A stretch of 64,000 nt of DNA from NCBI RefSeq assembly GCF_030384885.1, contig NZ_CP128613.1; one strand, 5' to 3'. The notes beneath the pieces are model-generated. The model had not been told where the DNA came from, did no database searches, and saw nothing but the letters and a program-made list of their open reading frames with translations. Position 1 is the first letter of the stretch, and each line of letters begins with the position of its first letter. Below are positions 32,617 through 44,500 of the stretch, one piece after another. The stretch is from Escherichia coli. Its GTDB lineage: Bacteria > Pseudomonadota > Gammaproteobacteria > Enterobacterales > Enterobacteriaceae. The position numbers and the translations under genes were made by a program.

Positions 32617-32742
32617 ATACTCTAAATAATTCGAGTTGCAGGAAGGCGACAAGAGAGTGAATCCCCTGGAGCTTACATAAGTAAGTGACTGGGGTGAGCG
32701 AACGCAGACGCAGCACATGCAACTTGAAGTATGACGAGTATA
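32617..32742. repeat. ERIC/IRU element (copy 1) in the pgk-fbaA spacer
   Basis: Contains gtgaatcccc(t/a)ggagcttacat and aagtaagtgactggggtgagcg, the ERIC1R/ERIC2 primer sites; near-identical inverted copy at 44376-44500. Confidence 0.8.
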
Positions 32743-32768
32743 AGGCCCGACGATACAGGACAAGAGAC

Positions 32769-33848
32769 ATGTCTAAGATTTTTGATTTCGTAAAACCTGG
32801 CGTAATCACTGGTGATGACGTACAGAAAGTTTTCCAGGTAGCAAAAGAAAACAACTTCGCACTGCCAGCAGTAAACTGCGTCGGTACTGACTCCATCAAC
32901 GCCGTACTGGAAACCGCTGCTAAAGTTAAAGCGCCGGTTATCGTTCAGTTCTCCAACGGTGGTGCTTCCTTTATCGCTGGTAAAGGCGTGAAATCTGACG
33001 TTCCGCAGGGTGCTGCTATCCTGGGTGCGATCTCTGGTGCGCATCACGTTCACCAGATGGCTGAACACTATGGTGTTCCAGTGATCCTGCACACCGACCA
33101 CTGCGCGAAAAAACTGCTGCCGTGGATCGACGGTCTGCTGGACGCGGGTGAAAAACACTTCGCAGCTACCGGTAAGCCGCTGTTCTCTTCTCACATGATC
33201 GACCTGTCTGAAGAATCTCTGCAAGAGAACATCGAAATCTGCTCTAAATACCTGGAGCGTATGTCCAAAATCGGCATGACTCTGGAAATCGAACTGGGTT
33301 GCACCGGTGGTGAAGAAGACGGCGTGGACAACAGCCACATGGACGCTTCTGCACTGTACACCCAGCCGGAAGACGTTGATTACGCATACACCGAGCTGAG
33401 CAAAATCAGCCCGCGCTTCACCATCGCAGCGTCCTTCGGTAACGTACACGGCGTATACAAGCCGGGTAACGTTGTTCTGACTCCGACCATCCTGCGTGAC
33501 TCTCAGGAATATGTTTCCAAGAAACACAACCTGCCGCACAACAGCCTGAACTTCGTATTCCACGGCGGTTCCGGTTCTACTGCTCAGGAAATCAAAGACT
33601 CCGTAAGCTACGGCGTAGTGAAAATGAACATCGATACCGATACCCAATGGGCAACCTGGGAAGGTGTTCTGAACTACTACAAAGCGAACGAAGCTTATCT
33701 GCAGGGTCAGTTGGGCAACCCGAAAGGCGAAGATCAGCCGAACAAGAAATACTACGATCCGCGCGTATGGCTGCGTGCCGGTCAGACTTCGATGATCGCT
33801 CGTCTGGAAAAAGCATTCCAGGAACTGAACGCGATCGACGTTCTGTAA
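32769..33848 (+). CDS. fbaA: Fructose-bisphosphate aldolase class II
   Basis: 359 aa from MSKIFDFVKPGVITGDDVQKVF; the track ORF N-terminal extension runs through the ERIC element. Confidence 0.95.
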   Translation: MSKIFDFVKPGVITGDDVQKVFQVAKENNFALPAVNCVGTDSINAVLETAAKVKAPVIVQFSNGGASFIAGKGVKSDVPQGAAILGAISGAHHVHQMAEHYGVPVILHTDHCAKKLLPWIDGLLDAGEKHFAATGKPLFSSHMIDLSEESLQENIEICSKYLERMSKIGMTLEIELGCTGGEEDGVDNSHMDASALYTQPEDVDYAYTELSKISPRFTIAASFGNVHGVYKPGNVVLTPTILRDSQEYVSKKHNLPHNSLNFVFHGGSGSTAQEIKDSVSYGVVKMNIDTDTQWATWEGVLNYYKANEAYLQGQLGNPKGEDQPNKKYYDPRVWLRAGQTSMIARLEKAFQELNAIDVL

Positions 33849-34038
33849 GATATTCCTTTCTGCTTATCTCAAGGCCCGCTCTGCGGGTCTTTTTTTCGCC
33901 AAAAGCAAGGTGATGCAGATGAGAAATCTGTGATCTATTTGGCAAAATTATGCTTTATTGTTTACCCTTGTCAGACTGCCCGTCATAAGGCGGCGGAGTG
34001 TATTTCTCCATTTTGAGTCAGTTGAAAAGGAATATTGA

Positions 34039-34899
34039 ATGGAAGATTTGAATGTTGTCGATAGCATAAACGGCGCGGGGAGCTGGCTGGTGGCTAACCA
34101 GGCGCTGCTGCTAAGTTATGCAGTAAACATCGTGGCGGCACTCGCGATCATCATCGTTGGTTTGATTATCGCGCGGATGATTTCCAACGCGGTGAATCGC
34201 CTGATGATCTCCCGTAAAATCGATGCCACCGTTGCTGATTTTCTTTCTGCATTAGTCCGTTACGGAATTATCGCCTTTACGCTAATCGCTGCACTGGGGC
34301 GCGTGGGCGTACAAACCGCGTCAGTCATTGCTGTACTCGGTGCCGCAGGCTTAGCTGTTGGTCTGGCTTTGCAGGGGTCACTGTCTAATCTGGCCGCTGG
34401 CGTGTTACTGGTCATGTTCCGCCCGTTCCGTGCCGGAGAATATGTTGACCTCGGCGGCGTAGCCGGTACTGTGCTGAGCGTGCAGATTTTCTCCACCACC
34501 ATGCGTACTGCAGACGGTAAAATTATCGTTATTCCGAACGGTAAAATTATTGCCGGGAATATTATTAACTTCTCCCGCGAGCCAGTTCGCCGTAACGAAT
34601 TTATTATTGGCGTGGCGTATGATTCCGATATCGATCAGGTTAAGCAGATCCTGACCAATATTATCCAGTCTGAAGACCGCATTTTGAAAGATCGCGAAAT
34701 GACTGTGCGTCTGAACGAACTTGGCGCATCGTCGATTAATTTCGTGGTCCGCGTCTGGAGCAAAAGCGGCGATCTACAAAACGTGTACTGGGATGTGCTG
34801 GAGCGTATTAAACGTGAATTTGATGCCGCCGGTATCAGCTTCCCGTACCCGCAAATGGATGTGAACTTTAAGCGGGTGAAAGAAGACAAAGCTGCATAA
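34039..34899 (+). CDS. mscS: Small-conductance mechanosensitive channel
   Basis: 286-aa [28 protein letters not shown]; three TM helices plus cytoplasmic domain. Confidence 0.9.
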
Positions 34900-42997: not shown

Positions 42998-43200
42998 TAT
43001 TTGCTCCATAAAACGCAATCAAAATGAGGGTATTTGCGCTTACGGTGAGCTTTTTACGTGGGTTTGTCGCCAGCAAAAAAAATGCATTCAGACGTCGTTT
43101 TTTGCCGCCTGAGATTTGTCTATTTTGTGATGTGATTCAAGGAATACAAAAAGAACTGGAGGTGATGCCTGGTATGTATTACCAGGCATTATTTGATGGA

Positions 43201-44094
43201 TTATTCCTGACGAAGAACTTTGTGACCATAATCGAGCAACGCATCAGTGACTTTACGCATCATGCGGCTTTCAGGAGCAAAGCGGTGCCAGTAGAGCATC
43301 CGGCGTTGAAATAGCCCTGGCGTTAAGTCAATCAGTTCGCCGCTGGCCAGTTCTTTCTCGATTTGCAGATGTGGGATCATACAGCAGGTGGTCCCCTGAC
43401 GAGCAAGTTGCACGAACGCTTCTGAAGAATTAACGATATGGCAGGGTACGCTGCCTGGAGGCAGATCAAAGTTTTGCTGCAAAAAGGCCTGGTGCATATC
43501 ATCAAGATGGTCAAACGCGACCACTGGCGCTTTCAGTAATGCCGAACGCGTTACGCCGTTAGGGAAATATTTTTCGGCGAACGGTTTTGAGCTGACGAAC
43601 AGATAGTCGAGCGCACCGAGCTTATCGACAAGACAACTCGGTAGCGCCTGATGTTGAATACTCACCGCGCCGACCACTTCGCCGCGACGCAGACGTTCCT
43701 GAGTGCGGGTTTCATCTTCTACCTGCAAGTTGAGGCGGATAGGCGAATCAGCTAACACAGGAGCCAGCGCCGGAAGCAACCACGTCGCCAGACTGTCAGC
43801 GTTGACCGCCAGTGAAAGCAGCAGCGGAGTTGAACCGGTTTGTTCATCGCCCAGCCACTCTTCTTCCAGTAACTCCACCTGGCGTAGCAGTGCCAGCAGT
43901 TTTTGCCCTTGTTCCGTCGGGCGCGGCGGTACGGTACGCACCAACAGCGGCTGCCCGAACATATTTTCCAGTTGCTTAATGCGCTGTGAGACGGCTGATT
44001 GTGTAATGCACAGCTTTTGTGCCGCGCGCTCAAATCCTCGTTCACGTATCACCGCATCCAGTGCCTGTAATGTTCTGTAGTCCGGGCGTTTCAT
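43201..44094 (-). CDS. argP: LysR-family regulator ArgP (IciA)
   Basis: 297 aa from internal Met [43 protein letters not shown]. Confidence 0.9.
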
Positions 44095-44375
44095 TGCTGT
44101 TGTCTGCTCCTGGTAAATGCTTTTTCCTGCACTATGACACAATTTTGCGTCAGGTTGCATATACCGAAGCCGTCGGCGGGTACATTTGTATCAGTGGTTA
44201 AACACGCAGCTTAAAAGATCAGGGATTTGCGCTATTGCATTTCGCTCAGCGAGTTCGCGCCCTGGAGCGGCATACCCAGAACTTTATATGCTTTGTTTGC
44301 GGGGCGAAAGTTTATGGATGAGTTAACCACGCGACTTGCCAACGGGGTCTGAATCGCTTTTTTTTGTATATACTC

Positions 44376-44500
44376 GTCATACTTCAAGTTGCATGTGCTG
44401 CGTCTGCGTTCGCTCACCCCAGTCACTTACTTCTGTAAGCTCCTGGGGATTCACTCTCTTGTCGCCTTCCTGCAACTCGAATTATTTAGAGTATAATGCG
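44376..44500. repeat. ERIC/IRU element (copy 2, inverted) in the argP-rpiA spacer
   Basis: Reverse complement of copy 1 with two substitutions in the central stem region. Confidence 0.8.

Follow-up and report, generated by a model that had tools for sequence, protein, structure and literature searches.

Two ERIC/IRU elements flank an 11,626-nt gene segment in the window, that is, the whole 64-kb stretch of Escherichia coli DNA that was analyzed. They are very probably independent members of their repeat family that happen to be neighbors, with the element between pgk and fbaA (copy A) fixed in the species, the element upstream of rpiA (copy B) a rare allele, and the pair neither a functional unit nor an inversion switch. 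Among 5,426 complete E. coli genomes, the junction query for copy A was covered in 5,422, and copy B was found at the same site and in the same orientation in 66 (~1.2%), with the remaining 98.8% lacking it. Read in this way, the pair is a coincidence within a common repeat family and no invertible module, with little consequence for genome architecture. ERIC elements are used worldwide in strain typing.

Sequence and family membership of the two elements

Gene annotation was taken from the RefSeq record NZ_CP027579.1 (E. coli 2013C-4282), where the window coordinate equals the record coordinate minus 4,433,996. The two elements and the sequence between them are as follows:

32616..32742, minus strand: ERIC copy A, 127 nt, with the consensus orientation on the minus strand; predicted RNA hairpin of -44.2 kcal/mol, z -5.8
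32743..44368, no strand assigned: segment between the ERICs, 11,626 nt, with fbaA, mscS, argO, yggE and srsR (ygfI) on the plus strand, scpC, scpB, meaB (argK), scpA and argP on the minus strand, and the yqfE remnant on the plus strand
44369..44495, plus strand: ERIC copy B, 127 nt, with the consensus orientation on the plus strand; predicted RNA hairpin of -37.8 kcal/mol, z -4.8

A repeat search of positions 32000-45000 found one long inverted pair only, with 126-nt arms at 32617-32742 and 44369-44494 that are 98% complementary and 11,626 nt apart. A second inverted repeat (34945-34986 and 36713-36754; 42 nt, 71% complementary) looked like chance and was discarded. Pairwise alignment and a script gave exactly two mismatches in 126 nt between copy A and the reverse complement of copy B, at element positions 51 (T in copy A, A in copy B) and 62 (T in copy A, G in copy B), and the homology had sharp edges at both ends. 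The 22-mers AAGTAAGTGACTGGGGTGAGCG and GTGAATCCCCAGGAGCTTACAT were each confined to the two copies within the window, with zero occurrences expected by chance (100 shuffles), and a chance origin of the repeat is therefore excluded.

These results bear out the description, in the initial annotation, of reverse-complement copies of about 125 bp in inverted orientation; the match was not shorter than claimed and both copies aligned with the ERIC consensus over its full length. The location given there was exact for copy A, but for copy B (44376-44500) it lay ~6 nt too far to the right of the full element at 44369-44495. The number of substitutions was likewise correct, but their assignment to the central stem held for one of the two: the predicted structure puts position 51 in the central stem, where it forms a U·U mismatch in copy A at a cost of ~4.6 kcal/mol, and position 62 in the apical loop.

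The assignment to ERIC/IRU and the opposite orientations were confirmed in both copies by primer and consensus matches. Of the two primer sites in the conserved central core, ERIC2 was found without mismatches in A and in B and the reverse complement of ERIC1R with one mismatch in each; neither site was found elsewhere in the 64 kb of the window. Against the 127-nt E. coli consensus (PMC2759123, Table 1a), copy A matched at 111/127 positions (87.4%) and copy B at 112/127 (88.2%), both ungapped, while the matches to Salmonella SeRU-1 were 117/127 and 118/127, respectively (92-93%). ERICs are bounded by terminal inverted repeats whose outermost bases are 5'-TA-3' (PMC2229807, Table 1). Both copies agree with this, having TATAC...GTATA ends and a perfect terminal inverted repeat of 7 bp; copy B ends in TATACTC...GAGTATA and copy A in the same sequences save the last base. 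Both copies are intergenic in the RefSeq annotation. The two elements are of a known kind, ordinary E. coli ERICs.

The 98% identity between A and B seemed exceptional against the baseline of 87-88% to the consensus, an impression overturned by the other loci sampled: the ERICs at psuT-yeiL, ybhI-ybhJ, ubiV-yhbW and rpnC-panC are 94-98% identical to A and B. On these sequences, the near identity of the pair appears ordinary and the family homogeneous. A T at ERIC position 89 was considered as a marker private to A and B and rejected, since a megablast search with a 34-mer placed T at ubiV-yhbW, too, in many genomes. With a homogeneous family that blastn placed at a median of 13 sites per genome, the proximity of A and B is unremarkable; by our estimate, the odds are roughly even that some pair of ERICs lies within 12 kb.

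The RNA structures anticipated by the initial annotation were predicted for both copies and both strands, with minimum free energies from -34 to -49 kcal/mol and z scores from -3.8 to -7.6; for neither copy, on neither strand, did any of 200 shuffled sequences produce as stable a fold. The long hairpin predicted for copy A persisted when the element was folded within 261 nt of its mRNA context.

Copy A in the pgk-fbaA spacer

Copy A occupies 59% of the pgk-fbaA spacer, where the relevant features are as follows:

32555..32768, plus strand: pgk-fbaA spacer, 214 nt, consisting of a terminator-like hairpin (32563-32582), ERIC A and then the fbaA ribosome-binding region
32769..33848, plus strand: fbaA, class II fructose-bisphosphate aldolase, directly downstream of ERIC A (annotation)

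The element starts 61 nt after the pgk stop codon, with the terminator-like hairpin in between, and 26 nt separate its end from the fbaA ATG; a terminator scan recovered the one terminator-like hairpin after pgk, flagged on the minus strand. The mRNA of pgk-fbaA carries the strand complementary to the ERIC consensus. A sigma-70 promoter scan found no promoter near copy A or copy B. The spacer length agrees with that in PMC2759082, where 5'RACE revealed no promoter between pgk and fbaA within the 214 nt, and copy A is therefore co-transcribed with the operon. The initial annotation had thus correctly placed the element directly upstream of fbaA within the epd-pgk-fbaA unit. Copy A is a species-wide, fixed element of this spacer and, by analogy with the ERICs of Yersinia, would most likely be a modulator of local mRNA decay or processing.

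Copy B upstream of rpiA

The surroundings of copy B include the following features:

44235..44352, plus strand: remnant of the pseudogene yqfE, corresponding to the 3' end of a LysR-family gene, with a TGA stop at 44350-44352 (alignment)
44492..44497, plus strand: TATAAT, a -10-like hexamer that stops 35 nt short of the rpiA ATG (read from the sequence)
44532..45191, plus strand: rpiA, ribose-5-phosphate isomerase A, directly downstream of ERIC B (annotation)

Copy B had been assigned to an argP-rpiA spacer, which is right on the rpiA side, but the left neighbor is more precisely the decayed LysR pseudogene yqfE. In comparison with K-12, the remnant has two extra deletions, of 89 and 24 nt, in the window strain, while an intact 298-aa LysR gene with a three-gene cassette is found in MS 21-1 and in "capsule spontaneous mutant 16b." All four combinations of an intact or decayed LysR cassette with ERIC B present or absent exist. 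One hit, broken exactly at the ERIC B target site in a rearrangement-like manner, proved to come from a strain whose LysR cassette is intact and whose site is empty.

Copy B is a rare presence/absence polymorphism, and its occurrence in ~1% of strains was the sole mild surprise of the analysis. A K-12-like strain and EDL933 lack the element and have a clean empty site; the site is also empty in Escherichia whittamii and Escherichia sp. E1V33 and filled in Escherichia sp. MOD1-EC7003. Aligned to each other, the empty site reads G(TA)3ATGCG and the filled site G(TA)3-[119-nt core]-(TA)2ATGCG, the target itself being a TA repeat. The copy B allele is a net gain of 123 nt in the (TA)3 tract that keeps TATAAT intact and puts ERIC sequence in place of all that lay upstream: the first four nucleotides of the hexamer are the end of ERIC B, and in the empty alleles the hexamer is part of G(TA)3ATGCG. 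This pattern is consistent with the entry of a TA-ended element into a TA tract, and any judgment for or against the 2-nt TA duplication expected of an inserted ERIC has to assume one TA slippage. TATAAT is an apparent candidate for the -10 of rpiA, judged by its sequence and position; a consensus scan found no two-hexamer promoter upstream of rpiA in the filled or the K-12 empty allele, and a search of article supplements and text gave no match for an rpiA transcription start site.

Some copy B alleles have grown further. Those of E2348/69 and 06-00048 contain inserts of 71 nt (at ERIC position ~83) and 78 nt (at ~40), and the same 71-mer is found at the same internal position of the rpnC-panC ERIC in O157:H7. 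With relaxed thresholds, Rfam gave sub-threshold matches only of AaHKsRNA22 and isrH to the E2348/69 allele, and these were discarded. To our knowledge, ERIC mobility has never been demonstrated; the filled/empty polymorphism at a single TA tract provides comparative evidence of present or recent ERIC movement in Escherichia, and the nested short elements of copy B are evidence likewise.

Three accounts of copy B were considered. It is possible, although somewhat doubtful, that copy B arose recently from copy A, by transposition or copying over a short range into the TA tract, and then spread by homologous recombination. With a single difference in 126 nt, the K-12-type copy A is nearest to B among the five other loci that were sampled, although the ybhI-ybhJ copy differs at two, leaving a margin of one nucleotide, and the comparison covers 5 of the ~13 ERIC loci. 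The T at position 89 is common to A and B and is replaced by G at psuT-yeiL, ybhI-ybhJ and rpnC-panC; T89/T94 is nevertheless also found at ubiV-yhbW, and the diagnostic 34-mer occurs at 6,998 places in 5,399 genomes. The empty site, intact in nearly all E. coli and in the two outgroup species, and the identity of the copy B sequence on at least five flank haplotypes are in line with a recent arrival and subsequent spread. ERIC is not known to have a transposase or a mobilization mechanism.

It is unlikely that copy B alters rpiA expression, by replacing the -35/UP region or by adding a leader hairpin, and owes its persistence to selection. The insertion coincides exactly with TATAAT, which it regenerates 35 nt upstream of the start codon, and several lineages have kept the element, even with nested insertions; however, the promoter scan revealed no canonical promoter in either allele, and the frequency of 1.2% is compatible with neutrality. 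The gene rpiA is the main ribose-5-phosphate isomerase gene, and with copy B in its apparent promoter region, the filled and empty alleles provide a natural experiment on the repeat and transcription.

More improbable still is that copy B is ancestral, having been present in the ancestor of Escherichia, downstream of a LysR gene that was still intact, and precisely deleted in most lineages. Its co-occurrence with the intact cassette in MS 21-1 and in MOD1-EC7003, a separate species, and the existence of all four cassette/ERIC states speak for such antiquity, but footprint-free losses would be needed in E. whittamii, E1V33 and nearly all E. coli, and the lineages show only 0-1 differences per 127 nt in copy B. 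Moreover, MS 21-1 and MOD1-EC7003 share a flank haplotype, which suggests transfer over deep ancestry.

On a further reading, which is rather less likely than not, copy B would be a comparatively recent insertion, most likely from the pgk-fbaA element, that landed on TATAAT and spread between Escherichia lineages by recombination. If this recent-insertion reading is true, the alleles would make a four-step series (empty, ERIC, ERIC+71, ERIC+71+78) that records how ERICs move and grow by nesting inside a single species and serves as a natural test of the effect of an ERIC on an adjacent promoter.

Gene order and comparison with known elements

The gene content that the initial annotation gave for the enclosed block (fbaA to argP) agrees with the RefSeq annotation, but its proposal that the block may invert fared poorly. 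The junction predicted for an inversion, a pgk-ERIC-yqfE' chimera, was found in 0 of the 5,426 complete E. coli genomes, and the parental junction was present in all 66 genomes with both copies, a modest natural sample. As assembled genomes reveal fixed arrangements and not rare sub-fixation isomers in culture, it is at the level of fixed arrangements that inversion is largely refuted. Because 98.8% of the genomes lack copy B, the bracketing is not a conserved architecture and there is no conserved invertible module. No recombinase or invertase gene is annotated in or beside the segment, where only metabolic, transport and regulator genes are found. Repeats of 126 nt with 98% identity are of sufficient length for RecA-dependent recombination, and the gene fbaA is essential on ordinary media. 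A RecA-mediated inversion would be physically possible given the length, identity and inverted orientation of the copies, but it should be counter-selected because fbaA would be cut off from its only known promoters, none being located in the spacer (PMC2759082). Altogether, it is highly improbable that the inverted ERICs serve as the substrate of an fbaA...argP inversion with two genome isomers, or that they indicate one.

Rfam at gathering thresholds assigned no family to copy A or copy B. The closest likeness there was to the 129-nt model of Vibrio RNA AS5 (RF02818, V_AS5), to which copy A aligns end to end with a similar long hairpin (E = 2.5e-6); at 36.8 bits against a gathering score of 96, it is a nonmember. 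[quoted passage not shown] (1991) and Wilson and Sharp (2006), and insertions of ~70 bp at specific internal ERIC sites were reportedly described by Sharp (1997) and Wilson and Sharp (2006). The nested copy B alleles resemble insertions of this known kind, while the window's own copies A and B are without inserts. In comparison with ERIC/IRU/RU-1 (PMC2229807, PMC3184786), A and B are alike in their 127-nt length, TA-rich ends, palindromic hairpin and intergenic site, and the elements themselves show no difference; only the location of copy B is strain-variable.

As presented in PMC2229807 and PMC3184786, the Yersinia ERICs studied by De Gregorio et al. (2005) are orientation-dependent mRNA stability elements that shift the ratio of upstream and downstream transcripts through an RNase E site. 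The unmasking by ribosomes proposed for ERICs close to a stop codon may not apply to copy A, since it lies 61 nt past the pgk stop and behind a separate terminator-like hairpin. Like the Yersinia elements, however, copy A is located between two genes of an operon, is co-transcribed with them and is predicted to form a hairpin.

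Identity of the inverted repeat pair

Gene annotation was taken from NZ_CP027579.1 (E. coli 2013C-4282), which is 100% identical to the window, window coordinates being those of the record minus 4,433,996. A repeat search within 32000-45000 returned one long inverted pair (arms 32617-32742 and 44369-44494), 126 nt in length, 98% complementary and separated by 11,626 nt. The arms belong to two ERICs, here called copy A and copy B, listed with further features of the region (the last three being Rfam matches above the gathering score):

32563-32582: G+C-rich, 8-bp terminator-like hairpin, just after the pgk stop and upstream of copy A
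32616-32742, - strand: copy A, occupying 127 of the 214 nt of spacer from the pgk stop codon (32552-32554) to the fbaA ATG (32769)
44369-44495, + strand: copy B, 127 nt, between a yqfE pseudogene remnant and rpiA
46892-47042, - strand: Sib antitoxin RNA, next to ibsC and downstream of serA
47691-47874, - strand: 6S RNA (ssrS)
61178-61255, - strand: naRNA4, a REP-derived nucleoid-associated RNA

Pairwise alignment of the copies gave exactly two mismatches, with similarity dropping abruptly beyond both ends, and two diagnostic 22-mers occurred in the window at the A and B sites only (shuffles predict 0). The near-identical inverted pair of the initial annotation is real, although its second copy had been placed about 6 nt too far right. 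Both substitutions had been assigned to the central stem; in the predicted RNA fold, the one at element position 51 does lie there, as a U·U mismatch in copy A, whereas position 62 falls in the apical loop. Copy A of a K-12-like strain and of O139:H1 has the consensus base at position 51, leaving a single A–B difference in these strains.

Both copies are textbook ERICs, as had been proposed. They align without gaps to the 127-nt E. coli consensus (Wilson & Sharp; given in PMC2759123 Table 1a) with 87.4% (A) and 88.2% (B) identity and show 92-93% identity to the Salmonella copy SeRU-1. The ERIC2 primer site is exact in both and the ERIC1R site has one mismatch, the termini are TATACTC...GAGTATA, and either strand folds into long hairpins (z-scores -3.8 to -7.6). 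A full-length consensus match, the primer sites, the termini and the hairpin are the defining features of ERIC/IRU elements (PMC2229807, PMC3184786).

The similarity of A and B is not exceptional: blastn-detectable ERICs occupy a median of 13 places per E. coli genome, and those scored against B at other loci differ from it by two (ybhI-ybhJ), four (psuT-yeiL) and seven (ubiV-yhbW) nucleotides; a further copy was retrieved from rpnC-panC. Among the sampled loci, A is the nearest relative of B by a margin of one nucleotide. The T at ERIC position 89 common to A and B is present at ubiV-yhbW too. There, the ERIC of strain elppa6 (L025 1428-1554) has the T89/T94 variant of A and B, and is an older, end-degenerate copy. 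The diagnostic T89/T94 34-mer occurs in at least two places in roughly 1,500 genomes and in one place in K-12 and O157.

Inversion of the enclosed segment

The pair had been regarded as a potential substrate for inversion of the block between the copies. The predicted A × B junction (pgk 3' end, ERIC, reverse complement of the yqfE-remnant side) was found in 0 of 5,426 complete genomes at ≥80% coverage, and the parental junction is retained in every one of the 66 genomes that carry copy B. No recombinase gene is annotated in the enclosed segment. An inverted isomer would set fbaA head to head with rpiA and cut it off from its promoters. Since fbaA is an essential gene on ordinary media, strong selection against such isomers is expected. 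That A and B pair up in this minority lineage is coincidental, not an architectural feature. In E2348/69 (L015 2949-4857), the scpA-meaB-scpB-scpC operon is deleted, with partial scpA and srsR pseudogenes remaining, and the ERIC pair is only ~7.5 kb apart.

A polymorphic insertion upstream of rpiA

Alignment of the window with the K-12-like strain and EDL933 revealed a clean empty site at copy B. Empty alleles have the sequence G(TA)3ATGCG; filled alleles, with G(TA)3-[119-nt core]-(TA)2ATGCG, are 123 nt longer. A TATAAT (44492-44497), formed by the TA tract, ends 35 nt upstream of the ATG of rpiA (44532). The insertion restores this hexamer but replaces all sequence upstream of it. Using a 261-nt junction query, we found the filled allele in 66 of the 5,426 genomes, constant in site and orientation. 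The sequence of copy B was identical over several flank haplotypes, except for one SNP in MS 21-1. Elsewhere in Escherichia, the site is empty in E. whittamii and strain E1V33 and filled in MOD1-EC7003. We lean toward a gain rather than a loss. An intact upstream LysR gene (yqfE) with a three-gene cassette occurs with the ERIC in MS 21-1 and without it in another strain, indicating that recombination has shuffled the two characters.

The intact regulator, found in the argP-rpiA interval of some E. coli (L016 10750-14040, MS 21-1; L026 195-3485), has 298 aa and is divergent from ferredoxin reductase family, DUF1471/YdgH-family and FMN-dependent NADH-azoreductase genes. The K-12 yqfE pseudogene and the shorter window remnant (~44235-44352) are what is left of this cassette after decay.

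Copy B alleles with nested 78- and 71-nt inserts were observed in E2348/69 (L004 ~505-583 and ~626-696) and 06-00048 (L005). The inserts lie at internal positions ~40 and ~83, which are roughly mirror-symmetric, and have a common three-hairpin layout with differing stem sequences. The 71-mer is present, nearly always singly, in 616 of 5,426 genomes; in O157:H7 (L023 1201-1271), it occupies the identical internal position of the rpnC-panC ERIC. The observation worth keeping is the insertion polymorphism that adjoins the TATAAT upstream of rpiA, together with its allelic series of nested inserts.

Copy A within the fbaA operon

A 1,126-nt pgk-ERIC-fbaA query was covered without a break in 5,422 of the 5,426 complete genomes. 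[quoted passage not shown] With fbaA driven from those promoters, ERIC A lies within the operon mRNA, and its hairpin is retained in the fold of the whole spacer.

A scan calls the 32563-32582 hairpin terminator-like on the - strand, where GTGATTTTTT comes next; read on the + strand, the hairpin precedes TGTTGCAG and then GCGCGCTTTT. Located between pgk and ERIC A, it may terminate part of the transcription or act as a stabiliser. Downstream, the fbaA-mscS spacer measures ~190 nt in the window (33849-34038) versus ~357 nt in the K-12-like strain (L018 11590-11946), where a locus tag is skipped; the K-12 spacer holds some extra feature.

Copy A also gave a full-length but sub-threshold match (32615-32734, + strand; 36.8 bits, gathering score 96) to the Vibrio antisense RNA AS5 (Rfam V_AS5), which suggests a Vibrio ERIC-like repeat as the basis of this family. 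By analogy with the Yersinia ERICs (De Gregorio 2005, as presented in the reviews PMC2229807 and PMC3184786), copy A would contribute to the decay or processing of mRNA.
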